A DNA stretch of 64,000 nucleotides from Candidatus Eiseniibacteriota bacterium (GTDB taxonomy: Bacteria; Eisenbacteria; RBG-16-71-46). Location of the stretch: assembly GCA_041483195.1 (NCBI GenBank), contig JBGPFC010000004.1, positions 96,001 through 160,000 on the forward strand. Direction: 5' to 3'. Shown here one piece after another: positions 18 through 61,473 of this stretch. Numbering within the stretch: the first letter of the stretch is position 1; the number at the start of each line of letters is the position of its first letter. Under the pieces are notes generated by a model. The model worked only from the letters and a program-made list of their open reading frames with translations. It searched no databases and was not told where the DNA came from. Both the position numbers and the translations under genes were made by a program.

Positions 18-93
18 TGGTAGCGCTACGGGGATTCGAACCCCGGTCTGATGGCTGAGAACCACCTGTCCTGGACCCCTAGACGATAGCGCC
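18..93 (-). tRNA. tRNA-Glu (anticodon CTC)
   Basis: Reverse complement GGCGCTATCGTCTAGGGGTCCAGGACAGGTGGTT-CTC-AGCCATCAGACCGGGGTTCGAATCCCCGTAGCGCTACCA folds as a cloverleaf with a GTTCGAAT T-loop and encoded CCA. Confidence 0.95.
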
Positions 94-135
94 ACGAGGC
101 TGCGCGCCGGGTCGGGCGCGAAAGAAGCGGCGCGC

Positions 136-165
136 AGTCTAGTCTCGCCGCTGGAAATCGGTCAA
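136..165 (-). promoter_or_regulatory. Putative sigma70-type promoter of tRNA-Glu (TTGACC-18-TAGACT)
   Basis: Hexamers read directly on the minus strand, about 40 nt upstream of the tRNA. Confidence 0.55.
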
Positions 166-221
166 GCGTGCGGCATGCGGCGGGTGCGCGTCGCGCGGAG
201 GCGCGCCGCGCGAGGAAATAA

Positions 222-295
222 TGGCTGCCCGGCAAGGATTCGAACCTCGACTAACTGGTCCAGAGCCAGTCGTGCTACCGTTACACCACCGGGCA
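222..295 (-). tRNA. tRNA-Gln (anticodon CTG)
   Basis: Reverse complement TGCCCGGTGGTGTAACGGTAGCACGACTGGCT-CTG-GACCAGTTAGTCGAGGTTCGAATCCTTGCCGGGCAGCCA forms a cloverleaf with encoded CCA. Confidence 0.95.
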
Positions 296-38143: not shown

Positions 38144-38403
38144 GAGCGGTGCAGGCTACGCGATCCGGGGCGGGAGCGCATCCCGGGAACGGCGCCACGG
38201 CGTCTCTCTCGCGCCGGTCCATCTGCCGCCCGCACCACGGACCAGCGCGCGAGGCGCCTGCACCATTGACATCGCTCTACGTGCTGATGAAGATCGGCGC
38301 TGCACGTTGTCCCCCGCGTGGGGGCTCCCGTGGGGGAATCGAGATGTTCGAAGATCCGTGGGGTTCTTCGTCACCTCCGGCGTCGTGCGGGCTCGGAGGC
38401 TGC

Positions 38404-39408
38404 GTGCGTGAGGGCAGCCCGGTCGTCAGTGTCGTGGGCGCTCCAGAGCCGCGGCTGCTTGATCGGCTGCGCGAAGCCATCCGCGTAAGGCACTACAGTC
38501 GCAGGACCGAAAAGGCCTTCGTCGGGTGGGTGAGGCGCTTCGTCCTATTCCACGGCAAGCGCGATCCGCGGGCGATGGGAAAGGCCGAGGTCAGCGCGTT
38601 CCTCTCCCACCTCGCAACCGAGGGTCGCGTGAGCGCCTCTACTCAGAATCAGGCGCCGAGCGCCGTGCTGTTCCTGTACGCACAGGTGCTCAACCAGGAT
38701 ATCGGCTGGCTCGACGAGTTGGTTCGAGCGAAACGCCCCGCCCGCGTACCCGTCGTGATGACCGGGGATGAGGTGCGCTCGGTGCTCGGGCAGCTGGAGG
38801 GCACAGAGCACCTCATGGCCTCCCTGCTCTACGGCGCGGGACTGCGGCTGCTCGAATGCTGCCGGCTGCGGGTGAAGGACGTCGATCTGGAACGCGGCGA
38901 GATCGTGGTGCGCGATGGCAAGGGCGCCCGCGATCGCAGGACCATGCTCCCGGTTCGACTCGTGCCCGCGCTCGCCGCACAGCTCGAGCGCGTGCGGGCC
39001 CAACACGCCCGCGATCTAGCCGCAGGGACCGGCAGCGTTGAACTTCCGCTCGCGCTGGAGCGCAAGTACCCGCGGGCGCCCTACGAGATCGGCTGGCAAT
39101 GGGTGTTCCCGGCGACGCGGTTCTACACGGACGCCGCGAACGGCCGGCGTCAGCGGCACCATCTGCACGAAATCGTGCTCCAGCGCGCCATGCATGGGGC
39201 CGTGCGACGCGCCCGCGTCATGAAGCCGGCCAGCTGCCACACGCTTCGGCACTCGTTCGCGACCCACCTGCTCGAAAGTGGCTACGACATCCGGACGATC
39301 CAGGAACTGCTCGGCCATCGTGATGTAAGCACCACCATGATCTACACGCATGTGCTGAATCGCGGCGGGCGGGGCGTGCGGAGCCCGCTGGACAGGGGTT
39401 TGGGATGA
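38404..39408 (+). CDS. intI: Integron integrase (tyrosine recombinase)
   Basis: [30 protein letters not shown], the IntI-specific patch [37 protein letters not shown] and [14 protein letters not shown]. Start uncertain (GTG 38404 after GGAGG, or ATG 38344). Confidence 0.95.
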
Positions 39409-43370: not shown

Positions 43371-46300
43371 TCAGGCCGCTCTCGGCCCCGTCCTCCACAC
43401 CCGCCCCACCAGCTTCGATCCGTCCTCGAGCAGCGTGTAGAGGCATGGCACCAGGATCAGCGTGAGCACCGTCGCCGCCAGCAGGCCGCCGATCACGGTG
43501 CGCGCGAGCGGGAAGTAGAGCACGTCGCCAACGTGCTCGCTCCCGAACGCGAGCGGGATCAGCCCCAGCGTCGTGGTGAGCGTGGTCATCAGGATCGGCC
43601 GCAGCCGGTCGTGGGCTGCGTCCATGATCGCGCGCGCGCGCTCCACCCCACGCTCGCGCAGCTGGTGCACGTGGTGAATGAGCACGATGCCGTTGTTCAC
43701 GACGATCCCGACCAGGATCAGCAGGCCGATCTGCGCCATCAGGTTGAACGGTGATCCGGTCAGTACGCAGATCCACGCGATCCCCACGAACGCGAACGGC
43801 AGCGCGAACATGATGGCGAACGGGTGTAGCAGCGACTCGAACAGGCTCGCCATCACCAGATAGACCAGCATCAGCGCCAGCACCAGATTGATGAGCATCT
43901 CCTTCTGGGTCTGGTCCTCCTCCTCGAATCCGTTCCCGAACGACCACGAGTACCCGCTCGGGAAGCTCATCGCTCCCATCTCGCGGGTCAGGCTCTTGCG
44001 CACCTCCCCGGCCTTCTTGGGATCGCAGGTGGCGTTCAGCTCGAGCACCGATCTCCGCTGCTGGCGCTCGATGGTCTGCGGCGTCGCGACCACGTGAAAA
44101 TCGGCGACCACCGAGAGCGGGACCGCCTCGCCGTGCGCGCCGGTGAGCCGCAATTCCTGGAGCTTCGCGAGGCTCGCGCGATCGTCTGCGGCGAGCCGCG
44201 CCTGCACCTGCACCTCGCCCTCCGGCCCCCGGAAGCGCGCGAGCGGCCGGCCGCGGAAGAACAGCGAGACCGCACCCGCAATGTCCGCGGTGTTCAGCCC
44301 GTAGCGCGCGGCGCGATCCCGGTCGACGTGGAGTTCGAGCTCCTGCGCGCCCTTGTCGTTTCCGATGTGCACGTCGTCGAGACCGGGCACCAGCGCCATC
44401 CGCCGCGACATCTCGCCCGCCAGCTCGTCGAGCCGCGGACCGGGCTCGCCGAACAGTCGAAGGGTGAGCTGCGATGGGCCGCTTCCGTTCTCGCGGTCGT
44501 CGAACTTGACCTTCACCCCCGCCAGCGGCGGCAGCTGCGCGCGCAGCTTCTTGCGCAGCGCGTTCGCCCCCTCGTCGTCGGTGTAGCCGGAGGCCAGATA
44601 CGCGCGCGTGAAGGCCAGGTTGTGGGTGAAGTACGAATACGTGGACCGCACGTGCAGCGAGTCCTTCCGCCCCTGGATCCAGCTCTCGAGCTTCGAGACC
44701 ACGCGCTCGACCTCGCGGTAGTTGAGATTGTCCGCGAACTCGTACTCCATGCGCACCGCCTCGATCTTGCTGGCGGTGAACGCGCTCTTGTCGACGCGTC
44801 CGAATGCGACCGCCGCGGTGGCGACCACCAGCAGCGCGAGGCCCACCGTGGCCGGCCGGTGTGAGAGCGTCCAGCGCAGCGCCCGCAGGTAGCGCTCGGT
44901 GATCCAGGTGATGACCCCCAGCTGGCGGACCGGCATCGAGGGCAGCAGGCGGCCCATCGCGAGCGGGATCGCGGTGAGCGACAGGAACAGCGAGCAGCAG
45001 AGCGTGAAGATGATGGTGCGTCCCACCTCGCCGATCCAGGTGGTGATCTCGGTGCGCCCGCCCAGCACCAGCGGCAGGAACACGATGATCGACGTGGCGG
45101 TCGATGACACGACCGCCGGGAGCACCTCGCGCGAGCCGACCAGCGCCGCGCGCAGCGGCCCAGCCCCGCGCTGCCGGTGGCGGTAGATGCTCTCGAGCAC
45201 CACCACCGCGTTGTCCACCAGCATGCCGACCGCGAGCATCAGGCCCATCATGGACAGGATGTTGAGCGTGCGGCCCGTGAAGCGCAGCAGCGCGGCCGCC
45301 GCGAGCAGCGAGAACGGGATCGCGAGCCCCACCACCAGCGTCGTCACCCAGCTGCGCAGGAACAGGAACAGCACGATGATCGCGAGCGTGCCTCCGATCA
45401 GGCCGGCGCGCAGCAGGCCGGTCAGCGAGTTCTCGATCTCCTCGGCCTGATCGGTGAACACCAGCACCCGCACCCCCTGAAGCTGCGGATCGCGCCCGAT
45501 CGACTCGAGCACGCTGCGCGCGCGGCGCGCCACCTGCACCGTGTTCGCGCCCGACTCCTTGATGACGTTGAGACCGATCGCGCGCGACTGGTCGAGGTGC
45601 CGCCCGTAGTCGAGCTCGGGTTCCGCGTAGCCGACGGTCGCGACATCCGTGAGCCGGAGCCCGCGCTCGGTGAGCGGGAAGTTCTTGATCTCGTCCAGGC
45701 TCGCGAACTGGTTGACCACGCGCAGCGGCCACGACTCGTCGCCCGGATGGATCTGTCCAGCGCTCATGCTGTGGCTGGCGGCATCGAGCCGGTCGAGCAG
45801 CGTGCGCGTGTCGATCCCGTGGCGCTCGAGGTCGGCGAGATGGAAGTCGATCTGCACCTGGGGCGGCTCGATGCCGTAGAGCTCCACCTTCGCCACCCCG
45901 GGCACGCGGCGCAGCGGGTCGGCGATGTGCCGGTTGAGCAGCTCGTAGTCGCGCGAGAGGTCGCGGGAGGCGGAAACCCGGCACTCGAGCACCGGGATGT
46001 CGCTCGAGCGCTGGCTGTTGACCTGGATCACGTCGACATCGGCCGGGAGCTGGTCGCGGATGCGGTCGAGCTTCTCGCGCGCCTCGGTCCGCAGCGGCCC
46101 GATGTCCTCGCCCCAGTCGAACTGGATGTAGATGTTCGACTCGTTGGCGGACGACGACGACTGGATCCGCCGCACCTTGGAGAGGGTCGAGAGCGCCTCC
46201 TCGGCGGGGCGCGTGATCTCCTCCTCGACCTGCGCCGGCAGCGAGTTGGGGTAGGGAATGCTGATCTCGATCCCCGGGAACTCGACGTCGGGCAGGAAGG

Positions 46301-46403
46301 CGAGCGGCAGCTTGGGCGCCGCCAGCGCGCCCAGCACGACGATGCAGAGCAGCACCATGCCCGCGGTGATCGGGTGACGCAGGCTCCAGCGCGACAGGTT
46401 CAT
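43371..46403 (-). CDS. RND efflux permease (second subunit)
   Basis: GMLVDNAVVVLE, GIVVNNGIVL and RLRPILMT; 1010 aa. Confidence 0.93.
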   Translation of the reverse strand: MNLSRWSLRHPITAGMVLLCIVVLGALAAPKLPLAFLPDVEFPGIEISIPYPNSLPAQVEEEITRPAEEALSTLSKVRRIQSSSSANESNIYIQFDWGEDIGPLRTEAREKLDRIRDQLPADVDVIQVNSQRSSDIPVLECRVSASRDLSRDYELLNRHIADPLRRVPGVAKVELYGIEPPQVQIDFHLADLERHGIDTRTLLDRLDAASHSMSAGQIHPGDESWPLRVVNQFASLDEIKNFPLTERGLRLTDVATVGYAEPELDYGRHLDQSRAIGLNVIKESGANTVQVARRARSVLESIGRDPQLQGVRVLVFTDQAEEIENSLTGLLRAGLIGGTLAIIVLFLFLRSWVTTLVVGLAIPFSLLAAAALLRFTGRTLNILSMMGLMLAVGMLVDNAVVVLESIYRHRQRGAGPLRAALVGSREVLPAVVSSTATSIIVFLPLVLGGRTEITTWIGEVGRTIIFTLCCSLFLSLTAIPLAMGRLLPSMPVRQLGVITWITERYLRALRWTLSHRPATVGLALLVVATAAVAFGRVDKSAFTASKIEAVRMEYEFADNLNYREVERVVSKLESWIQGRKDSLHVRSTYSYFTHNLAFTRAYLASGYTDDEGANALRKKLRAQLPPLAGVKVKFDDRENGSGPSQLTLRLFGEPGPRLDELAGEMSRRMALVPGLDDVHIGNDKGAQELELHVDRDRAARYGLNTADIAGAVSLFFRGRPLARFRGPEGEVQVQARLAADDRASLAKLQELRLTGAHGEAVPLSVVADFHVVATPQTIERQQRRSVLELNATCDPKKAGEVRKSLTREMGAMSFPSGYSWSFGNGFEEEDQTQKEMLINLVLALMLVYLVMASLFESLLHPFAIMFALPFAFVGIAWICVLTGSPFNLMAQIGLLILVGIVVNNGIVLIHHVHQLRERGVERARAIMDAAHDRLRPILMTTLTTTLGLIPLAFGSEHVGDVLYFPLARTVIGGLLAATVLTLILVPCLYTLLEDGSKLVGRVWRTGPRAA

Positions 46404-46431
46404 CGCCGGCCCGCCCGTGCGCGCCCGGACA

Positions 46432-49400
46432 TCACGGCCGGCGGTCCAGCGTCGCGTACACCACCGGGATCACGACCAGCGTGAGCAGGGTCGCGAACGA
46501 GAGCCCGCCCATGATCGTCATCGCCAGCGGCGCCCCCACCTCGGAGCCCTCGCCGATCCCGAGCGACATCGGCAGCAGGCCGAGCACGGTGGTGAGCGTG
46601 GTCATGAGGATCGGGCGGAGCCGCACGGTGCCCGCCGTGATCAGCGCCTCGCGCTTCGGGCGTCCCTCCGCCCGCAGGCGGTTCGTGTAGTCCACCATGA
46701 TGATCGCGTTCTTCACGACGATGCCGGAGAGCACCAGCAGCCCGATCAGCACCATCACGCTCACCGCGTTGTGCGTCAGCACCAGCGTGAGCACCACGCC
46801 GATCACGCCCAGCGGGAGCGTGAACATGATGACGAACGGGTGGAGCAGGGACTCGAACTGGCTCGCCATCACCAGGTAGACGAGGAACACCGCCAGCAGC
46901 AGCGCGAAACGGATCGATGCGAAAGAATCACCCAGCTCGCGATTCTGGCCGGCCAGCGTGACGCGCGCCCCGGGCGGGAGCGCGAGCCCGTCGAGCGAGG
47001 CCAGGATGTCGCGAGAGGCCGAGGCCAGGTCGCGGCCCTTGAGATTCGCGGAGACCACGGCGGCGCGCTGCTGCGCGATGCGCCGGATCTCGCCGGGTCC
47101 GCGTTCGACCGACACCAGTGCGACGCTCGCGAGCGGAACCGGCCGGTCCGCGTTGCGCCCGACCTCGAGATTCGCGAGCTGCGCGACCTGCGAGCGCTGG
47201 TCTTCGGTGGCGCGCACCCGCACGTCGAGCTTGCGATCGACGTCGCTGAACTGCGTCGCGGCCTCGCCCTGCACCGCGTTGCGCACCAGGCGCGAAGCCG
47301 AGACCGGATCGAGATGGAGCGCGGCGAGGCGCTCGCGGTCGAACGAGATCCGGACCTCGGGATCGCCGAAGCGCATCGAGGATTCGACGTCTTCCACCCC
47401 GCGGATATCCGCGACCCGGCGCGCCACCTGGGAGGCGAGGGTGCGGAGCGTGTCGAGGTCGTACGCGTAGACCTCGACCTCGACCGGGCTCTTGAAGGTG
47501 AGGAGCTGGGGCCGGCCGAACTCGTAGGAGAGCCCCGGCATCTCGTTCATCGAGGCGCGGAGCCGGGCGGCGATCCCCTCCTCGGCTTCACCCGGGCTTC
47601 CCGGCTTGAGCACCACCGCGAGCTGGCCGCGATTGGGCTCGCGCGACCCGCCCGCGAAATCCGAGAGGTCGGTCTGCCCGGCGGTCGTATATGCGAAGCG
47701 CACGTGGGGATCGTGCTCGATGGTGCGCGCGAGCCGCTCCAGGGTCTCGTCCGTGACATGCAGCGCGGTCCCCTCGGGGAGGCGCAGGTTGAAGTGGAAC
47801 TCGCCCTGCGCGAACGACGGGAACAGATTGCGCGGCAGCAGCAGTCCGGCCGTGACCGCCGCCGCGAGCGCGAGCGTGGCCACCGACAGGACGCGGCGCG
47901 GATGGCCCAGCGCCGAACGCACGATCCGCGGGTAGACGCGCTCGAGCGCGTCGTAGCCGGCCTCGACCGGGTAGAAGAGGCGCCGCACCCAGGGACGGAG
48001 CACGGGGCCGAGCCACCGCGTCGCGCGCACGATCATCCGCGGGACGAACAGCACGGCGAACAGCGTCCACGCGATCACGGCGCTCCAGCGTCCGCGGCGC
48101 TTCGGGGTCTCGACCAGCGTGGCGTCCGGATCGGCGACCGGCACGTCGTGGCGGCCGCCGCCGCCGAGCGCGGCGATGGTGGGCACCACGATCAGGGCCA
48201 CGATCAGCGAGGCCATCAGCGAGAAGGACACGGTGAGCGCCTGGTCGCGGATCAGCTGGCCCGCCACCCCCTCGACGAACACCAGCGGCAGGAACACGAC
48301 CACCGTCGTGAGGGTCGATGCCGTGATCGCCATCGCCACCAGTCCGGTGCCGCGGCTCGCAGCCGAACGCGCGTCGTGACCCTCCTGGCGGAAGCGGAAG
48401 ATGCTCTCGAGCACCACGATCGAGTCGTCCACCAGCATCCCGACGCCGAGGGCGAGCCCGCCCAGCGACATGAGATTGAGCGAGAGCCCCATGCGGTACA
48501 TGGCGATGAAGGTCGCGAACACCGAGAGCGGGATCGAGAGGCTGATGATGACCGTCGATCGCAGGTCGCGGAGGAAGGCGAAGATCACGAGCACCGCGAG
48601 CAGCCCCCCGATCAGGGCGGAGTTCACGACGTCGCGCACCGACTGCTCGATGAAGCGCGACTGGTCCGCCACCGTCAGGAGCGTCATGCCCGCGGGCAGC
48701 GGGATGCGCTTCATCCGCGCCTTCACGGTGCGCGCCACCGCCACGGTGTTGGCGTCGCCTTCCTTGTAGATCGCGATCTCCACCGCCTCGTCGCGGTTCA
48801 CGCGGGTCACCAGCTCGCGCTCCTTCGCGCCGCGGCTCACCGTGGCCACGTCGGCGAGGCGGACCGCGCCATCGGGGCGCGACACGAGCACGATGCCGCC
48901 CATCTCCTCGGGCGTGAGGAACTGATTCGCGACCCGCACCAGGTACTCGGACCGGCCCTCGGTGAGCGAGCCCCCCGCGAGATTGATGTTCTCCTGCCCG
49001 AGCCGGCGCGTGACGTCCGTGAGCGAGAGCCCCGCCGAGGCGAGGCGCTGCGCGTCCACCTCGACGTGGATCTCCTCCTCTTCGCCACCCGCGACCCGCA
49101 CCGCGGCGACCCCGGGCGCGCCTTCGAGGTCGGTCTTCAGCGTGCGCTCGGCGATGCGGCGCAGCCGCTGGAGGTTGCCGCCCCCCGCGAGCCGGTAACG
49201 CAGGATCGGATCGAGCGACGGGTCGAATCTCAGGATGGCGGGACGCTTGGCCTCGCGCGGCAGCGCGACCAGGTCGAGCTTCTCGCGCACGCCCAGCGAT
49301 GCGAGGTCCATTCGCGTGCCCGAGCCGAATTCCATCGTGACCTCGGACTGGCCAGGGTGGGAGACGGAATGCATCCGCACGAGTCCTGGCACCACGCCCA

Positions 49401-49611
49401 CGCCCTCCTCGACCGGGCGCGTCACGAATTGTTCGACGTCGCTGGGCGCGGCGTCCGGCAGGTCGGTGCGAACGGTGAGCGATGGGTACGAGATGTCGGG
49501 CAGGAGATCGACGGACAGCCGTGAGGCCGCGACCAGGCCGAACACCACGAGCCCCGCGGTCACCATGAACACCGTGACCGGCCGCTGCAGTGACGAGTCG
49601 ACGAGGCGCAT
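46432..49611 (-). CDS. RND efflux permease (first subunit)
   Basis: QRPVTV, LLPDISYP, GMLVDDSIVVLE, VVKNAI and RLRPILMT. Start at ATG 49611 after GGAGG. Confidence 0.93.
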   Translation of the reverse strand: MRLVDSSLQRPVTVFMVTAGLVVFGLVAASRLSVDLLPDISYPSLTVRTDLPDAAPSDVEQFVTRPVEEGVGVVPGLVRMHSVSHPGQSEVTMEFGSGTRMDLASLGVREKLDLVALPREAKRPAILRFDPSLDPILRYRLAGGGNLQRLRRIAERTLKTDLEGAPGVAAVRVAGGEEEEIHVEVDAQRLASAGLSLTDVTRRLGQENINLAGGSLTEGRSEYLVRVANQFLTPEEMGGIVLVSRPDGAVRLADVATVSRGAKERELVTRVNRDEAVEIAIYKEGDANTVAVARTVKARMKRIPLPAGMTLLTVADQSRFIEQSVRDVVNSALIGGLLAVLVIFAFLRDLRSTVIISLSIPLSVFATFIAMYRMGLSLNLMSLGGLALGVGMLVDDSIVVLESIFRFRQEGHDARSAASRGTGLVAMAITASTLTTVVVFLPLVFVEGVAGQLIRDQALTVSFSLMASLIVALIVVPTIAALGGGGRHDVPVADPDATLVETPKRRGRWSAVIAWTLFAVLFVPRMIVRATRWLGPVLRPWVRRLFYPVEAGYDALERVYPRIVRSALGHPRRVLSVATLALAAAVTAGLLLPRNLFPSFAQGEFHFNLRLPEGTALHVTDETLERLARTIEHDPHVRFAYTTAGQTDLSDFAGGSREPNRGQLAVVLKPGSPGEAEEGIAARLRASMNEMPGLSYEFGRPQLLTFKSPVEVEVYAYDLDTLRTLASQVARRVADIRGVEDVESSMRFGDPEVRISFDRERLAALHLDPVSASRLVRNAVQGEAATQFSDVDRKLDVRVRATEDQRSQVAQLANLEVGRNADRPVPLASVALVSVERGPGEIRRIAQQRAAVVSANLKGRDLASASRDILASLDGLALPPGARVTLAGQNRELGDSFASIRFALLLAVFLVYLVMASQFESLLHPFVIMFTLPLGVIGVVLTLVLTHNAVSVMVLIGLLVLSGIVVKNAIIMVDYTNRLRAEGRPKREALITAGTVRLRPILMTTLTTVLGLLPMSLGIGEGSEVGAPLAMTIMGGLSFATLLTLVVIPVVYATLDRRP

Positions 49612-49686
49612 CGGATTGCCTCCGGAAGAGGGTGCTCCGCCCGCGCATGCGGGCGACACGAACGCGCGGGCGCGCGGCGCGGACCG

Positions 49687-50781
49687 CTAGGAGCGCACGA
49701 CCCGGATCTTCGAACCCTGCTTCAAGCCGCCCTGCCCCACCGTGACCACGCGCTCTCCCGCCCTGAGCCCGGCGAGGACCTGCGCCGTTTCGTTCTCGAC
49801 CGCGCCGAGCTTGACCGGGAGCCGCACCGCGCTGTCACCCCGTGCGACGAACACGAAACTCTCTCCATCCTCGCTCACCACTCCCCGGCGCGGGAGCAGG
49901 AGCGCACCCGGGAAGCTTCCGGTCTGCAGGCTCACGCGCGCGAACGCCCCGGGGCGCAGCGCGCCCTCGGGATTGGGCAGCTCGAGCGTGACCTTGCAAG
50001 TGCCGTTGCTCTGGTCCACGACCGGATTCAGGCGCACCACGCGCGCCTCGAACGTGCGGCCGGGTTGCGAATCGATCGTGAGGCGCGCCGACTGTCCGAC
50101 GCGAATCGCGGAGAGATCGCGCTCTGGGAAGAACAGCCGCACCAGCAGCGGGCTGAACTCGACGAGCTGGAAGCAGGCCTTGCCCGGCGTGACGGTCTCG
50201 CCCATGTTGATCTGGCGCTCGGTGACGCGCCCCGAGAACGGCGCGGTGATGCGGGTGAGATCCAGGTTGTGCTTCGCCTGCTCGAGTTCGACCGAGGCGG
50301 TGCGGCGCTTGAGATCGAGGTCTTCCTGCTCGCGGGGGGAGAGGTAGCCCTGCGCGTGCAGCTGGTCGCCGCGTTCCGCCTCACGCTTCACCACCTCGAA
50401 CGAGAGGGTGGCGCGGTCCACCGCCAGCGAGGCCTCCCGATCCTCGAAGCGCGCGAGCACCTCGCCGGCCTTCACCCACTGGCCTTCCTCCGCCAGGAGC
50501 TCGATCACCTGCCCCTCGCGCCGCGCCATGAGCACGGCGCTGTTGCGCGGCTCGAGCGTGGCCGAGGTCTGGAGGTAGGTCGAGATCGGACCCACCGTGA
50601 CCGTGCTCAGCTCGACCGGCGCGGCGGGCGCGGTTTCCTTGTCGGACTTCTTCTTGGCGGGCGCGTTGCTCCCTGCGCTCTTGAACGCGAGGCTCAGGAC
50701 GACGGCGCTCGCCACCAGCACGAAACCGACGGACGACCAGATGATGACGCGCCGGCGGCGATGGCTTGCATGGGCTTCCAT
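49687..50781 (-). CDS. RND efflux periplasmic adaptor
   Basis: N-terminal TM anchor; ITAPFSG and LRPGAFA motifs. Confidence 0.9.
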   Translation of the reverse strand: MEAHASHRRRRVIIWSSVGFVLVASAVVLSLAFKSAGSNAPAKKKSDKETAPAAPVELSTVTVGPISTYLQTSATLEPRNSAVLMARREGQVIELLAEEGQWVKAGEVLARFEDREASLAVDRATLSFEVVKREAERGDQLHAQGYLSPREQEDLDLKRRTASVELEQAKHNLDLTRITAPFSGRVTERQINMGETVTPGKACFQLVEFSPLLVRLFFPERDLSAIRVGQSARLTIDSQPGRTFEARVVRLNPVVDQSNGTCKVTLELPNPEGALRPGAFARVSLQTGSFPGALLLPRRGVVSEDGESFVFVARGDSAVRLPVKLGAVENETAQVLAGLRAGERVVTVGQGGLKQGSKIRVVRS

Positions 50782-50935
50782 GACGACCTCCCCAACGCGA
50801 TCTCGCTCACCGGCGCCGCGGCCCGGCGCGAATCCGGGGCGAGGGGCCTTCGAGCGTCATGGCCGGACCGGGACGATCGGGCCGGCCGGAATGCCGCATC
50901 TACGGCTTCCGCCCGTTGCAGGTTGCAGCGGGCGG

Positions 50936-52387
50936 CTAGAGAGGCGCGAACTGCGCCTCGGTGGGTTCCGCTCAGCAATACCATGGCTCGGTGAGAAAGG
51001 GCACCGGCGGCCGGTGCGGCGCCCGTGCGGCGGCCGCGAGCGGCCGCACGCGCTCCCCGGACGCCTCGACCGCGAGCGCGTACGCCCGATCGAACACCAC
51101 CCCCCGCGCTTCGCCCCGGCCTGAGGCCTCGGCCACCATCGACTGCACCCGTCCGCACAGCGCGTCGACCCGCGGCTCGGGATGCCGCCACGGATGGCAC
51201 AGCAGGACCGGGTCGAGCGGCTGCGCGAGCGCGCGGGCCTCCGGCAGCTCGAGCAGCCGGGACCCCGGCGGGATCAGCAACCGAATCCCGAGCTGAACCG
51301 GCGCCACGTGCTCGATCAGCCCGAGTTCGGCGATGGTCTCGAGCAGCTCGGCGTAGCCCGCCCGCGAGATCCACGGGGTGAACGCGACGAAGGTGGGATG
51401 CAGGATCAGGGACTCCTCCCGGAACAGTCGCACGACCTCGACGAAGTCGGCGCGAGTATGCCCCTTCTCGAGCCGCTCGAGCACGCGGTCGTCCACCGAT
51501 TCCACCGCGCTCGTCACGAATCGGCACCCGGTCTCGCGCAGGGTGGCGAGCTGTTCACGGTGCGCGAGCAGATGCTCGATCTTGATCGTGACGTCGTAGG
51601 TGAGGGCGGGGAACTCGGCGTGCAGCGCCCGCACCAGCGGTATCGCGTGCCCGATGCCGTTCCAGAAGTCGGGATCGCCGAACGTGACGTGCCGCGCCCC
51701 GGCCTCGACCTGGCGTCGCACGTCATCGAGCACGATCGCGCGCGGCACGACCCGGAAGCGCCCGCCGTAGATCGGAACCACCGGGCAATGGCGGCACAGG
51801 TGTTTGCAGCCACGGCTCGACTCGGTGTAGCCCACGGTGAGGAGCGAGCCGTCGCCCGGATCGAGCCGCGCGTAGCGATCGAGCGCGGGCAGCCCCTCGC
51901 GATCCGGCGCGAGAAACGCGAGGCGTTCGAGCGAGACGCCGTCGTGCGCGCGTGCGTCGGGGCCCCGGCCCGCGAGGCCCATCGCCCATTCGGTGAGCCC
52001 CCGCTCGAACTCACCCGAGAAACACGCCTCGACGCCCAGCGCCCGCAGCGCTCCCGCGTTCATCGCGGCATAGAGTCCATACGCGGAGAGCGGCGCGCGC
52101 GGGTTGAGCGCGCGGACCCGCGCGATCACCGGCGCCGCGAGCCGGGTCGCGGTATGCATCGGGAGGAAGAAGGCGACGGCGTCGGCCGACCCCGCCGCGA
52201 CCTCGTCCAGCGGATCGACCGCGAGATCGCAACAGACGACCGAGGCCCCCGCGCGGCGCAGCCACGCCGCCGGGGAGGCGAGTCCGAATGGCTGACGGCC
52301 GAGGTCGTAGGTCGAGATCAGCACCACGCGCGGCGCATGGCGCGGGGCGCGGGACTCGGGCGCCTCGGACGACACCGCGCTCTTCAT
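50936..52387 (-). CDS. CUAEP/CCAEP-tail radical SAM selenoprotein (Sec at TGA 50972-50974)
   Basis: SSRGCKHLCRHCP (CxxxCxxC) with a B12-binding-like N-domain. Reading through the TGA gives ...PFLTEPWYC-U-AEPTEAQFAPL-TAG(50936), the tail that names this family. Confidence 0.9.
50941..50959 (-). promoter_or_regulatory. Putative bacterial SECIS element
   Basis: mRNA reads UGA-GCGGAACCCACC-GAGGCGC-AGUUC-GCGCCUC: a perfect 7-bp stem starting 12 nt after the UGA, with G near the start of the loop. Confidence 0.75.
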
Positions 52388-52421
52388 CGGCCGACGGTTC
52401 CGGCGTCCAGGAGCCCGGCGC

Positions 52422-53027
52422 TCATTCGAGCGGCGAGCGGCCGCCTTTCGCGGGCTGGTAATAGGGGTTCCTCCCCCCCGCGTGATCGGTGCTGTCCACG
52501 ATCTCGCGGATCGCGGGGACCGCGTCGCGGATCCGCACCTCGATGCCCTGCTTGAGCGTGACGTCCACCATGCCGCAGCCCTGGCAGCCGCCGCCGAGGC
52601 GGATGTACGCGACGTCGCCCTTCACGTCGAGCAGCGTCACGTTGCCGCCGTGCGAGGCCACGGCCGGATTGATCTCGTCGTCGAGCACCTTCTGGACCGC
52701 CAGCGCCGTGGGGTCCGACCACAACGGGTTCGGGTTGTCGATCTTGAATCCGCTGCCGTATGACGATTCGACGTAGTCGATGCTCGCCCCCGTCAGCAGC
52801 GGCACGCTGGGCTGGTCGATCATCACCGGCAGGCCGCCCACCTCGAATCCCACGTCCTCCGGCGTGCGCTCGCTCTCCGGCACGAACGCGAGCCGGTACT
52901 GGAATCCGCCCGGGCCGCGGCCCACGACGCCCATTCGGAGGCCGAGCCCGTCGCGGCCCTCGGCCTGCATCAACTCGCGAATCTTCGCGAGCCCCGCCTC
53001 GGAAATCGTGATCAACGCTGCCGTCAT
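52422..53027 (-). CDS. nfuA: NfuA-type Fe-S cluster carrier (degenerate A-type domain plus NifU-C domain)
   Basis: ITISEA, GASIDYVE...GFKIDNPN, INPAVASHGG and LGGGCQGCG. Confidence 0.9.
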   Translation of the reverse strand: MTAALITISEAGLAKIRELMQAEGRDGLGLRMGVVGRGPGGFQYRLAFVPESERTPEDVGFEVGGLPVMIDQPSVPLLTGASIDYVESSYGSGFKIDNPNPLWSDPTALAVQKVLDDEINPAVASHGGNVTLLDVKGDVAYIRLGGGCQGCGMVDVTLKQGIEVRIRDAVPAIREIVDSTDHAGGRNPYYQPAKGGRSPLE

Positions 53028-54325
53028 GCCTCGCTCCCTTCAACCCCGGATGCCCGCGCCCCGGCGCGCGGCGTGCGGGGATCGATGTCGAACGTCAGGT
53101 GCCGATGCGCCTCGCGCAACGCCGCCTCCACCTGCTCGGGCAGCTCGCCGCGCGCGAAGATGAAGCCCAGGTAACGATCCCCCTCCGGCAGCGGTACGAG
53201 CTCCTGCCCGGGCGGAACGGTGATGCGCAGCTCGTCGATCAGGTCCACGCCGCGCGCGGCGTCAACGCCGCCCACGGCGCGCAGCACGCCCGCCCGCGGG
53301 ATGGGAATCATCATGACCCCCGAGGCGCAGCGTTCGCGCTCGAGCGCCGCGACGTCGACGCCGAGCGCATCGCTCAGAATCAGCGCCTCGAGCGACACGC
53401 CGTCGCCGAATCGGAGCGAGCGCGAGCATAGCCCGCCGATGCTGCGCGGGGCAATCTCGAGCGGCCACGCGCCGGCCGTGTTCCAGCGCAGCTCGGCGTG
53501 CACCGGTCCCTGCCCGAGCCCGATCGCGGCGACGGCCCGCGCGGCCGCCGCCTCGATCGCCCGTTGCGTCGCACGATCCAGGCGTGAAGGGGTGACGTAG
53601 ATCGTCTCCTCGAAATACGGGCCATCGAGCGGATCGGGCTTGTCGAAGATCGCGAGCACCCGCAGCGCCCCGCGCGTGACCAGCCCTTCGACCGCGACTT
53701 CGATCCCGGGAATGTAGTCCTCGATCAGGATCTCCGTGGCGAGCGCCCCACCCGCCGCCGCGACCTCGGGGCGCGCGAGCAGCGCTGCGATGCGCCGGAA
53801 CGCCACGGCCAGCGCCCCGGGATCGTCCGCGCGGATCACCCCGCGGCTCGCCGCGAGGAACAGCGGTTTGAGCACGCAGGGGTACTTGACCCGCGCCGCG
53901 ATCGCCTCCGGCCCTGCGCTCACCGCGCAGCGCGCGATCCGCGGCGTGAGCAATCCCGCGCGCGCGAAGGCCTCGCGCGTCGCGAGCTTGCTGCGGGCGG
54001 TGCGCACCGCCGCTGCGGAATGGTGCGGCAGGCGCAGCGCCTCTGCGGCGCGCGCGGCCAGCAGCACGCCCTCGTCGTCGGCGGCGATCACAGCGTCCAG
54101 CGGATGCTCGCGCGCGAACGCCTCGATCGCGCGGGTCGCGGCGTCCGCGTCTCCGAACGCGAGCGCCAGGTTCCCGGCCGGGTTGAGGGGCGCGAGCGCC
54201 TGCGGCCGGTCGGTCGCGACGACCGCCTCCGCGCCGATGGCCCGCGCGGCGTCGAGGAACGCACCGGCGCGGTAGGACGCCGTGGTCATCAGCAGCAGCA
54301 CGCGCGGTCTGCGGGATGCGCTCAA
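53024..54325 (-). CDS. ATP-grasp domain protein (amino acid ligase-like)
   Basis: SKLATRE, YPCVLKP..LAASRGVIR, IEDYIPG.EVAVE, GPVHAELR and LEIAPRSIGG. TTG start overlaps the upstream stop; the first ~720 aa of the 1158-aa ORF are an off-frame shadow. Confidence 0.85.
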   Translation of the reverse strand: MSASRRPRVLLLMTTASYRAGAFLDAARAIGAEAVVATDRPQALAPLNPAGNLALAFGDADAATRAIEAFAREHPLDAVIAADDEGVLLAARAAEALRLPHHSAAAVRTARSKLATREAFARAGLLTPRIARCAVSAGPEAIAARVKYPCVLKPLFLAASRGVIRADDPGALAVAFRRIAALLARPEVAAAGGALATEILIEDYIPGIEVAVEGLVTRGALRVLAIFDKPDPLDGPYFEETIYVTPSRLDRATQRAIEAAAARAVAAIGLGQGPVHAELRWNTAGAWPLEIAPRSIGGLCSRSLRFGDGVSLEALILSDALGVDVAALERERCASGVMMIPIPRAGVLRAVGGVDAARGVDLIDELRITVPPGQELVPLPEGDRYLGFIFARGELPEQVEAALREAHRHLTFDIDPRTPRAGARASGVEGSEA

Positions 54326-56689: not shown

Positions 56690-57706
56690 TCACCCGCGCG
56701 GCCCGGCCGCCGCGCGGCGCCCGCCCAGTTCGATCGCGGTCCCGGCCCCCGCCGCCTCGGCCCGAACCCACACCGCGTGCGCGGCCGCCAGATCCTCGAC
56801 CGCGAGCCCCAGCGACTCGAAGAGCGTGATCTCGTCGCGGGTCGCCCGTCCCGGATGCGCGCCGCTCACCAGCTCGCCCAGCTCCGCGCGGATGTGCCCG
56901 GCCCCGATCGCGCCCTCGGCGATCGGGATCAGGATGTCCCCCGCTTCCTGCAGCGCCGATTCGCGCCGGTCCACGAAGAGTCGCGCCCGCGCGACCGCCG
57001 CGGTGTCGAGCTCGCGGGCGTCGCGGAAGCACGCGCCCACCGCGTTGACGTGCGCCCCCTCCGCGAGCCACGCGCCATCGAGCACCGGCGTTCGCGAGGC
57101 GGTGGTCGTGCACACCAGATCCGCGCCATCGACCGCCGCGCGGGCCGAGGCGCACACCTCGATCGCGAGCCCGAGCCGCGCGGACTCCCGCGCCGCGAAG
57201 CCACGCGCGCTCGCGGGGCTCCGGCTCCACACCCGGACGCGCCGCAGCGGCCGCACCGCGGCCATCGCCCGGGCGTGGCTCGCCGCCTGCACCCCGGCGC
57301 CGAGCAGCGCGAGATCGCCGGCGTCTTCGCGCGCGAGGCACCGGGTCGCGAGCCCGCTCACCGCGGCGGTGCGGAGCGCCGTGATGGCGCTCGCGTCCAC
57401 GATCGCCCGCAGGCTGCCGCGTACGGTCTCGAACACCAGCACCACGCCCTGGTGGGAATCGAGCTCGGTGCCGTGATTGCCCGGCATCACCGTGACCACC
57501 TTGATGCCGATCGCGAGCGGGCTGCCGGTGTACGCCGGCATGAGTCCGAGCAGGCCGCTGCGATCGGGGAGCCAGACCATCGAGCGCAGCGGTTGCACGG
57601 CGTCGCCGCGCGCGAGCGCCTCGAACACCTCGCGCATCACCTCGATGCACTCGAGCATCGGGAGCAGCGCCTCGACCTCCGCCTGCGCGACGACCCGCAC
57701 GCTCAC
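56690..57706 (-). CDS. Ornithine cyclodeaminase / mu-crystallin family protein
   Basis: GLMPAY, KVVTV.PGN, ITALRTAAVS, GAGVQA, HVNAVG and FESLGLAVEDL. GTG start overlaps the upstream stop. Confidence 0.9.
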   Translation of the reverse strand: MSVRVVAQAEVEALLPMLECIEVMREVFEALARGDAVQPLRSMVWLPDRSGLLGLMPAYTGSPLAIGIKVVTVMPGNHGTELDSHQGVVLVFETVRGSLRAIVDASAITALRTAAVSGLATRCLAREDAGDLALLGAGVQAASHARAMAAVRPLRRVRVWSRSPASARGFAARESARLGLAIEVCASARAAVDGADLVCTTTASRTPVLDGAWLAEGAHVNAVGACFRDARELDTAAVARARLFVDRRESALQEAGDILIPIAEGAIGAGHIRAELGELVSGAHPGRATRDEITLFESLGLAVEDLAAAHAVWVRAEAAGAGTAIELGGRRAAAGPRG

Positions 57707-58677
57707 GGGGCCGCCCGGCTCGCGGCATCGAGCGCCGCCGCGAAGCGCGCCGGATCGATGTTGCCGCCCGAGACGATCGCGGCCACGCGCGCCCCGCGCG
57801 GCAGGCTCACGCGACCGGCGATCAGCGCCGCGGTGGCGGCGGCGCCCGCGCCTTCGGCGCAGAGCTTCGCCCGGCTCGCGAGCCACAGCATCCCCGCCCG
57901 GATCTGCGCCTCGCTCACCGTGACGATCTGGTCGACGCACTCGCGCGCGATCGCGAGCGGAAGCGCTCCCACGAAGGGCGGCGTCATGCCGTCCGCGAGC
58001 GTGTCCGCGGGCCTCGCCACCGGGATCGGCTTTCCAGCCGCGAGCGCCGGCGCGAGGCCCGGACCCGCCTCGAGCTCGACCGCGATCACGCGCGCGGCCG
58101 GGCGAAGCTGCTTCACAGCGCTCGCGACGCCGCCCATGAGTCCGCCCCCTCCGACCGGAACGACGACCGCATCGACCCCGGGCAGATCTTCGACGATTTC
58201 GAGCCCGACCGTTCCCGCGCCGGCCAGCACCACCTCATCGTCGAACGGATGGACGAAGGTCGCGCCGGTCGCGGCGCGCACCGCTTCGAGCTTCTCGAAC
58301 AGCGTGGCGCGATCCGGGTGGAGGATCACCTCGGCGCCGTAGCCGCGCACCGCTTCGATCTTGGCGCGCGGCGCCGAATCCGGCATCACCACCGCGCACG
58401 GCACCCCCACCGCGCGCGCCGCCCACGCCACCGCCTGCGCGTGGTTGCCCGCCGAGACCGTGACCAGTCCGCGCGCGCGCTCCTCAGGGGTGAGCGTGAG
58501 CACGCGGTTCAGCGCGCCGCGCGCCTTGAACGAGCCCGTCTTCTGAAAGCTCTCGCACTTGAGCAACAGCTCCACCCCGGCGCGCGCGCCGATCGCGCGG
58601 CTCGAGAGCAGCGGCGTGCGATGCAGCTGGCCGCGGATGCGGGCGGCCGCCGAGCGAATCGCCTCCAGCTCGATCAT
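57703..58677 (-). CDS. PLP-dependent threonine/serine dehydratase (serine racemase-like, fold type II)
   Basis: KCESFQKTGSFKARG, SAGNHAQ, VHPFDD, PVGGGGL and SGGN; no ACT domain. Confidence 0.92.
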   Translation of the reverse strand: MIELEAIRSAAARIRGQLHRTPLLSSRAIGARAGVELLLKCESFQKTGSFKARGALNRVLTLTPEERARGLVTVSAGNHAQAVAWAARAVGVPCAVVMPDSAPRAKIEAVRGYGAEVILHPDRATLFEKLEAVRAATGATFVHPFDDEVVLAGAGTVGLEIVEDLPGVDAVVVPVGGGGLMGGVASAVKQLRPAARVIAVELEAGPGLAPALAAGKPIPVARPADTLADGMTPPFVGALPLAIARECVDQIVTVSEAQIRAGMLWLASRAKLCAEGAGAAATAALIAGRVSLPRGARVAAIVSGGNIDPARFAAALDAASRAAP

Positions 58678-61389: not shown

Positions 61390-61473
61390 TGGGCTAGGTG
61401 GGATTCGAACCCACATGTCCGCGAGGACACGACATTTTAAGTGTCGCGCGTCTGCCAGTTCCGCCACTAGCCC
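61390..61473 (-). tRNA. tRNA-Leu (anticodon TAA), CCA not encoded
   Basis: Reverse complement GGGCTAGTGGCGGAACTGGCAGACGCGCGACACT-TAA-AATGTCGTGTCCTCGCGGACATGTGGGTTCGAATCCCACCTAGCCCA, with a long variable arm. Confidence 0.93.

Follow-up and report, generated by a model that had tools for sequence, protein, structure and literature searches.

An in-frame TGA in a radical SAM gene of Candidatus Eiseniibacteriota very probably encodes selenocysteine in a CUAEP-tail protein with an ATP-grasp ligase partner

Does a radical S-adenosylmethionine (SAM) gene from a Candidatus Eiseniibacteriota bacterium end at the TGA that closes its annotated open reading frame (ORF), or is this codon read as selenocysteine (Sec) and, in that case, what could the resulting Cys-Sec pair be doing? 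The gene is located on the minus strand of a stretch of 64,000 nt (the window; positions 96,001–160,000 of contig JBGPFC010000004.1, assembly GCA_041483195.1). Its reading frame starts with the ATG at 52387 and reaches ...L-T-E-P-W-Y-C and then the TGA at 50974..50972, past which the same frame remains open for A-E-P-T-E-A-Q-F-A-P-L up to a TAG at 50938..50936. An earlier note on this DNA had described this arrangement, with which the sequence and its translation agree in every detail, and had interpreted the TGA as a Sec codon followed by a Sec insertion sequence (SECIS) hairpin. From the sequence comparisons described below we conclude that the product of the gene running from 52387 to 50936 is very probably a true selenoprotein and a member of the curated family NF040546; this degree of confidence covers the identity of the protein and the recoding, with its chemistry excluded.

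The 483-aa read-through product scored 618.4 bits against the NCBIfam profile NF040546, named "CUAEP/CCAEP-tail radical SAM (seleno)protein," for which the curated cut-off is 500 bits; residues 21–481 aligned with positions 1–467 of the 468 in the profile, and the alignment extends through the tail encoded downstream of the TGA. The same profile gave 611.9 bits on the raw genome, with one TGA inside the match. Pfam comparisons identified a Radical_SAM domain (49.4 bits) and, below the cut-off, a B12-binding-like N-terminal domain (23.4 bits). The protein contains the cluster motif CX3CX2C (C194-K-H-L-C198-R-H-C201), whose three cysteines are present in all 95 aligned sequences, as well as the C-terminal C-[U/C]-A-E-P tail of the family, as ...EPWYC-U-AEPTEAQFAPL. 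All the testable features of NF040546 membership were thus found in the window protein, in agreement with the family assignment in the earlier note. The selenoprotein is real but already known, in that the family, its name and the alternation of Sec and Cys are curated by NCBI, and some homologs in the public collection carry the family name, one of them from a metagenome-assembled genome (MAG) of Candidatus Eisenbacteria. Within the limited literature set searched, the only relevant work on the CUAEP/CCAEP tail was a preprint that, in the passages considered here, names NF040546 as an uncharacterised CU selenoprotein (Haft, bioRxiv 10.1101/2022.07.06.499078). What is new for this locus is the composition of its gene cassette, the adjacency of a ligase gene in 78 of 95 loci and the recognition of a 219-aa ORF as an artefact.

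The organism decodes Sec, as far as its genome can show. In the same assembly, which is 96.8% complete and consists of 93 contigs, we found a gene for tRNA-Sec (selC; 69.9 bits for a gathering score of 47, with anticodon TCA by ARAGORN) as well as selA (552 bits), selB (352.7 bits) and selD (348.6 bits), all over their cut-offs; the TGA is recodable to Sec because the genome has tRNA-Sec, SelA, SelB and SelD. The selD gene shares a contig with the tRNA-Sec gene (C9:87191-88583), at a distance of around 380 nt; it has one in-frame TGA of its own and is a second probable selenoprotein of this organism. The earlier note had supposed that Sec is decoded, and would have given up its reading had this machinery been missing and had the homologs shown no conservation beyond WYC; all four genes are present, and the A-E-P sequence is kept downstream of the site.

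Searches with NF040546 yielded matches above the cut-off in 18 of 61 related genomes, including that of the window. At the site corresponding to residue 472, 16 of these 18 copies have a TGA, two are lost to contig ends before reaching it, and none has a Cys codon; of the TGA copies, 15 contain one TGA inside a single match and one is split into two rows, with the TGA in the second. Among the 80 loci examined in other lineages, 25 have TGA at this codon, 46 have TGC and nine have TGT, such that Cys occupies the position of the TGA in 55 of them. The alignment of 95 read-through sequences revealed a conservation of at least 97% for the motif E467-P-W-Y-C-[C/U]-A-E-P475, with A-E-P kept after TGA and after TGC or TGT alike, which is what the earlier note had expected of a Sec codon. 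A Methylomirabilis copy (locus L042:11300-11470, plus strand), counted among the 25 TGA loci, shows the variant tail S-W-Y-C-U-V-E-P instead of P-W-Y-C-U-A-E-P and closes at a second TGA, so that in this organism a span of 45 nt has the same codon in both roles, Sec and stop.

In the three codons following the TGA, columns 4, 5, 7, 8, 10, and 11 were invariant among 39 distinct Sec tails (G4, C5, G7, A8, C10, and C11) and variation was confined to the third positions (columns 6, 9, and 12); this pattern is the mark expected of a translated, selected peptide. Additionally, the Sec/Cys state switches at least 11 times on a FastTree phylogeny of 94 sequences, inferred from an alignment that left out the Sec site and the tail, and repeated interchange of this kind is what typically marks a genuine Sec position. 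Standard gene callers truncate the protein, as the earlier note had predicted: the public entry for the window protein is 100% identical but has 471 aa and stops at WYC, while 118 of the 120 homolog representatives listed in the public collection end exactly at W-[Y/F]-C and the other two continue as CCAEP. The public protein therefore lacks its last 12 residues, beginning with the most interesting one, a problem shared with those 118 listed relatives, and the annotation should be extended and the Sec marked. The family is very large, with at least 8,000 candidates at E ≤ 1e-20, and includes members from Acidobacteriota, Methylomirabilota, Eisenbacteria, Chloroflexota, Actinomycetota, Pseudomonadota, and Nitrospirota, among others; carriers of the Cys form include isolates of Nonomuraea and Chloroflexus.

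The hairpin that had been noticed 12 nt past the TGA is confirmed in the sequence as a perfect 7-bp stem with arms GAGGCGC (50959-50953) and GCGCCTC (50947-50941) enclosing the loop AGTTC (AGUUC in the RNA; 50952-50948). Considered as a single sequence, it is only weakly beyond chance: perfect 7-bp stems with loops of 3–8 nt begin at 217 of 128,000 window positions, and the chance of one beginning 8–20 nt past any given codon is about 2%. Because a hairpin in a single sequence is unremarkable in DNA with 70.8% GC, as is that containing the 71 nt that we folded around it, the case needs comparison among homologs.

The TGA, the downstream frame and a hairpin at the same distance recur in the kin and in other phyla. 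Using a fixed register (stem bases 16–22 and 28–34, counted from the T of the TGA), the 39 distinct Sec tails had a mean of 5.69 out of seven pairs and a local minimum free energy of -12.1 kcal/mol, vs. 3.0 out of seven pairs and -6.75 kcal/mol for 53 distinct Cys tails (Mann-Whitney, p ~4e-10). In the ungapped alignment of the Sec tails, standard pairs made up 81.3% of the cells, whereas this value was 50–57% after sliding the 3′ arm by 1–3 columns. Five of the seven stem pairs are altered on both sides across these tails, with 27 doubly changed cells compared to 8.3 in shuffled sequences, and none of 500 shuffles reached 27. The second base of the loop is a G in 39 of 39 Sec tails vs. 34 of 53 Cys tails, and in the former it is kept although the codon that it closes changes meaning (CAG, CCG, CGG). 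As judged from these alignments, the hairpin shows covariation and specificity for the TGA forms, with decay in the Cys forms; these two properties and the loop G support the SECIS-type reading put forward in the earlier note. The Cys-form genes (loci L043-L105) retain a weakened hairpin, often with G-U pairs, along with the same peptide pattern AEPTxxQ[LF]; this could be either a SECIS remnant after replacement of Sec by Cys or the result of peptide constraint on the DNA.

Bacterial SECIS elements of the type found in Escherichia coli fdhF are intragenic hairpins just 3′ of the UGA, with a conserved G in the apical loop. The hairpin from the window resembles them in its location within the coding sequence, with the stem 12 nt and the loop 19 nt past the UGA, and in its invariant loop G. 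However, its sequence is unrelated to that of the fdhF element, its stem is short, fully paired and without a bulged U, and it belongs to no curated RNA family.

Several observations count against Sec recoding. The evidence for it is computational throughout; the 71-nt fold around the hairpin has a z value of -0.99, its stability being equaled or exceeded by 31 of 200 shuffles; the p-values for the contrasts in Sec/Cys pairing and loop G are overstated, since the kin are non-independent; and an Rfam search over positions 50700-51200 retrieved no SECIS-like family, only two chance-level matches, although Rfam may lack a model. The TGA could be an ordinary stop, with the protein ending at ...WYC, as called by gene finders, and the hairpin a product of chance or a terminator-type structure, as its insignificance by itself in shuffling would allow. 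Nevertheless, such a stop should not be followed by a conserved AEP with only synonymous variation, or be replaced by Cys codons in 55 of 80 loci from other lineages with the same tail; it would leave without a role the coverage of the tail by the NF040546 profile, the covariation of the hairpin and its specificity for TGA forms, and the complete Sec machinery of the genome. We consider an ordinary stop extremely improbable.

Recoding places a Sec next to C471 in a gene that is the last of a cassette with the order ATP-grasp ligase, NfuA-like gene, radical SAM gene (Table 1). The ATG of the NfuA-like gene overlaps the stop codon of the ligase gene (ATGA), and its 3′ end is 34 nt before the start of the radical SAM gene. 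The ATP-grasp protein contains, above the Pfam cut-offs, domains ATP-grasp_4 (106.1 bits), LAL_C2 (54.3 bits), and ATPgrasp_N (40.7 bits), and its best relative of solved structure is the L-amino acid ligase BL00235 (3VOT, E 7.6e-37). It is thus similar in its three domains to BL00235 and to BacD (E 1.5e-12 to the latter) but, unlike the named L-amino acid ligases, it reaches no NCBIfam equivalog. A 219-aa ORF overlapping the start of the radical SAM gene (52384-53043, minus strand) was rejected as a wrong-frame shadow, because it is of low complexity, rich in Arg, Gly and Pro, and has no family match, while the frame 52422-53027 is a clean NfuA-like gene; tblastn finds this ORF in 11 of 15 kin, but its apparent conservation is misleading. 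We also dropped as candidate precursor peptides the seemingly conserved clusters of 117-, 118-, and 107-aa ORFs found near acidobacterial copies, which look like frame shadows and have no Pfam match.

We examined the neighborhood of 95 loci, comprising the 80 from other lineages and 15 from kin, with one contig contributing a locus to both sets. A ligase gene was considered adjacent when found on the same strand within 3 kb, by tblastn with E ≤ 1e-5 and covering more than half of the query. The ATP-grasp ligase gene adjoins the radical SAM gene in 78 of the 95 loci (76 by an independent all-against-all clustering): in 63 it is downstream, which is the common order in Acidobacteria, and in 15 it is upstream, separated from the radical SAM gene by the NfuA-like gene, as in the window. 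Among the 17 loci without the ligase gene, six have less than 1.3 kb of flanking sequence on one side. These comparisons show the ligase as the conserved partner of the NF040546 family across phyla. The NfuA-like gene is found at 21 loci, including all the 15 with the order of the window; in 59 loci, almost all of them acidobacterial, a YggX/Iron_traffic gene is the companion instead. The window copy, whose lineage groups with "Candidatus Eisenbacteria" MAGs, differs in gene order from the commoner arrangement of NF040546 loci, in which the radical SAM gene is followed by the ligase gene, but shows no difference from other members at the protein level, having the same CX3CX2C core, EPWYC[C/U]AEP tail and Sec position.

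Outside of the cluster ligands, exactly three Cys/Sec positions are conserved in the 95 sequences: C288 (in 92), C471 (in 95) and U/C472 (in 95). An AlphaFold2 model of the protein, built with an alignment of 45 sequences, had a mean predicted local distance difference test (pLDDT) score of 90.5 and a predicted template modeling score of 0.90. In this model, pLDDT values are 82–85 for the C-terminal tail and 57 for the linker preceding it (residues 451–460), which suggests that the tail docks in a defined place behind a linker predicted with low confidence. Foldseek comparisons with the model place it among B12-domain radical SAM enzymes in general and no more precisely; the nearest solved folds are the two-domain enzymes AprD4, TsrM, OxsB, MgmA (9CCB), MiaB, and CysS, with AprD4 as the top match (6FD2, E 3e-16, TMq 0.66), and RimO is, like MiaB, among the structural neighbors. 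A sequence search of solved structures did not reveal any close relative, the best match being 9ccb_A (E 2e-8).

The second-best model for the radical SAM protein is that of ArsL (NF040542), with 249 bits over residues 22–412 and 248.3 bits on the genome. According to passages of two preprints on ArsL (bioRxiv 10.1101/2024.02.01.577332; 10.64898/2026.04.29.721666), this enzyme of arsinothricin biosynthesis has a CX3CX2C cluster motif and an RCCLKC tail, and cuts the Cγ-S bond of SAM to generate methylthioadenosine and a 3-amino-3-carboxypropyl (ACP) radical. The same passages report that the cysteines of the RCCLKC tail are needed for As(III) binding and for formation of the C-As bond, whereas SAM cleavage does not require them, and that removing the tail left the iron and sulfide content unchanged; the six absolutely conserved Cys of ArsL are three in the cluster and three in the tail (10.64898/2026.04.29.721666). 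The window protein is like ArsL in its homology over the whole core, in the cluster motif and in having a short, Cys-rich C-terminal tail; likewise, the CUAEP family has six conserved Cys/Sec, namely the three of the cluster, C471, U/C472 and the core residue C288. The latter is a difference, since the preprint passages on ArsL count only the six invariant Cys mentioned. Additionally, the locus has an ATP-grasp ligase partner in place of a methyltransferase, with no arsM/arsQ context found. A score above the cut-off, the RCCLKC (CCxxC) motif and, among the ORFs scanned, the ars neighborhood, three of the four ArsL features listed, are absent for the window protein, which has those of NF040546; because of this, we regard it as a sister of ArsL and not as ArsL. 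This comparison rests on the profile score and the preprint passages, not on a residue-by-residue alignment, because none of 151 genomes of the class yielded an ArsL above the cut-off.

The Cys-Sec dipeptide itself is rare, and the window protein shares it with the CU selenoproteins of SAO loci and with HgcA, which belong to other protein families and other gene neighborhoods (Haft, bioRxiv 10.1101/2022.07.06.499078). In the passages considered of this preprint, CU motifs are described as clustering in heavy-metal-handling proteins, and the dipeptide is proposed to touch the metal in organometallic chemistry. The reading of the Cys-Sec tail in the earlier note, as an arm that serves the active site by redox chemistry or metal binding, remains an inference, which fits with the binding of As(III) by the ArsL tail, with the conservation of at least 97% of the tail motif and with the pLDDT of 82–85 of the tail.

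By analogy, we tentatively favor an ArsL-like mechanism in which the Cys-Sec tail would deliver a soft substrate atom into the active site, a proposal that we hold as possible more than probable. In this mechanism, the CX3CX2C [4Fe-4S] cluster would cleave SAM, possibly to the ACP radical, while the flexible Cys-Sec tail, perhaps together with the core residue Cys288, would keep that atom, a metalloid, chalcogen, or metal, in place there. The SAM-derived radical would then bond to this atom, giving rise to a methionine-like amino acid that the ATP-grasp ligase could couple to another amino acid; the NfuA-like protein, or YggX in Acidobacteria, would supply or repair the Fe-S cluster. The points that we count in favor of this mechanism are the position of ArsL as second-best model, the role of the ArsL tail, the three extra Cys/Sec residues, the pLDDT of the tail and the presence of the ligase in 78 of 95 loci.

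Other observations weigh against an ArsL-like mechanism. The ArsL score is far under the NF040542 cut-off of 450 bits, and the tail is WYC-U-AEP instead of RCCLKC, with two soft ligands, one of them Se, vs. three in ArsL. No arsenic-resistance family appeared among the window ORFs scanned (23 with Pfam and 14 with NCBIfam), and neither did any methyltransferase except for an ICMT-type one some 10 kb away. True ArsL was found above the cut-off in 0 of the 151 genomes of the class, all the matches being from the CUAEP family. Of the 95 loci, 11 with at least 2.7 kb of flanking sequence on both sides lack the ligase gene. Lastly, the sequence does not tell which SAM bond is cut, as the preprint passages on ArsL give no signature for it.

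The same selenoprotein could also work with canonical 5′-deoxyadenosyl chemistry and use its tail as a redox arm, cycling between selenolthiol and selenenylsulfide, a possibility for which the earlier note had allowed. In mammalian thioredoxin reductase, a flavoprotein, a C-terminal Gly-Cys-Sec-Gly arm shuttles electrons; the window protein is of an unrelated fold, but it similarly carries vicinal Cys and Sec on a flexible extension of its C-terminus, from which a buried center has to be reached. Its C-U pair could supply a product radical, or an oxidized center within the barrel, with electrons or with a hydrogen atom. The alternation of Sec with Cys is typical of redox-active positions, the linker with a pLDDT of 57 is as expected of a swinging arm, and AprD4, the nearest fold, uses 5′-deoxyadenosyl chemistry without cobalamin. 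Conversely, the radical SAM gene has no conserved neighbor that could act as partner reductase, the CU motifs cluster in heavy-metal-handling proteins according to the passages from Haft (10.1101/2022.07.06.499078), and ArsL, the closest sequence relative of known chemistry, has in the passages considered a tail that acts in substrate binding instead of as a redox couple. On balance we find this redox role rather unlikely.

Alternatively, the Cys-Sec pair and Cys288 could ligate or feed an auxiliary or sacrificial Fe-S (or Fe-Se) center for the insertion of S or Se, as in MiaB, RimO and LipA, with the neighboring NfuA-like or YggX protein rebuilding the cluster after it is consumed. NfuA restores the sacrificial cluster of LipA, and here the Fe-S helper gene occurs in two unrelated forms, NfuA-like in 21 and YggX/Iron_traffic in 59 of the 95 loci; moreover, MiaB and RimO are among the structural neighbors. 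A nearby Fe-S carrier may, however, benefit any [4Fe-4S] enzyme, and three extra ligands coming from a floppy tail and one core Cys would make an unusual site for an auxiliary cluster. Since ArsL without its tail also keeps its iron and sulfide content, according to the preprint passages, we consider such a center improbable, clearly more so than the redox arm.

Returning to the ArsL-like mechanism, the kinship of the enzyme with ArsL makes its reaction directly testable, and the fixed pairing with an L-amino-acid ligase offers a concrete two-enzyme assay for substrate and product. Of the CX3CX2C radical SAM enzymes, only ArsL is known to make the ACP radical, and the CUAEP family is its nearest relative. 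It is conceivable, if somewhat doubtful, that the CUAEP/CCAEP enzymes constitute a second, far more widespread branch of ArsL-type ACP-radical enzymes, in which the tail and Cys288 hold a soft atom other than arsenic. This atom might be selenium, sulfur, antimony or a metal, with which the radical would form a new carbon-heteroatom bond, and the partner ligase would build the resulting methionine-like amino acid into a dipeptide; if true, the product would be an unfamiliar, common metabolite of soil bacteria. The limited literature set searched did not contain any work joining the ACP radical with an ATP-grasp enzyme.

Table 1. Location of the radical SAM cassette and of other features within the window
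Feature	Coordinates	Strand	Remarks
Radical SAM selenoprotein CDS	50936..52387	-	483 residues plus TAG; Sec is residue 472
In-frame TGA read as selenocysteine (U472)	50972..50974	-	Immediately 3′ of invariant C471
SECIS-type hairpin in coding tail	50941..50959	-	7-bp stem, 5-nt loop AGUUC, 12 nt past UGA
NfuA-like Fe-S cluster carrier	52422..53027	-	201 aa; Pfam NifU 78.6 bits, Fe-S_biosyn 46.2 bits; GGCQGCG motif
L-amino-acid-ligase-type ATP-grasp	53024..54289	-	Assigned by Pfam domains; 5′ end approximate, start codon unfixed
RND efflux set	43371-50781	-	Adaptor 49687-50781, permeases 46432-49659 and 43371-46403; same strand as cassette
Inverted repeat past the TAG	50909-50935	-	CCGCCCG (50935-50929)/CGGGCGG (50915-50909)
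OCD/mu-crystallin reductase gene	56690-57940	-	
PLP-dependent Thr/Ser-dehydratase-like gene	57703-58677	-	
tRNA-Leu(UAA)	61390-61473	-	
Tyrosine-recombinase (phage integrase family) gene	38149-39408	+	
tRNA-Glu and tRNA-Gln	18-295	-	

Farther upstream of the cassette there are genes for a PMT_2-like membrane protein, an OCD/mu-crystallin reductase, a pyridoxal phosphate (PLP)-dependent Thr/Ser-dehydratase-like enzyme and a major facilitator superfamily (MFS) transporter, and downstream of it for a resistance-nodulation-division (RND) adaptor and two RND permeases. None of them was counted as a pathway member, because their adjacency to the radical SAM gene is limited to 1–5 close kin; the 80 distant loci lack them, with the sole exception of one match with 25% identity to the periplasmic adaptor. 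The RND set, found beside the radical SAM gene in only 3–5 close kin, is probably local synteny outside the module. Immediately past the TAG of the radical SAM gene, and before the RND adaptor gene, there is a GC-rich inverted repeat with a 13-nt loop containing a tandem CTGCAA; it is followed by no U-tract and is unlisted by the terminator scan, and it may be a terminator-like or regulatory hairpin. The dehydratase-like gene overlaps that for the OCD/mu-crystallin reductase, an arrangement kept in 1–2 kin and reminiscent of SbnA/SbnB-type or imine-reductase pathways, with scores below every equivalog cut-off. Additionally, the tRNA-Leu(UAA) gene directly adjoins the MFS transporter ORF at its predicted start, the opposite strand has a tyrosine-recombinase gene of the phage integrase family, and genes for tRNA-Glu and tRNA-Gln are located at the start of the window.

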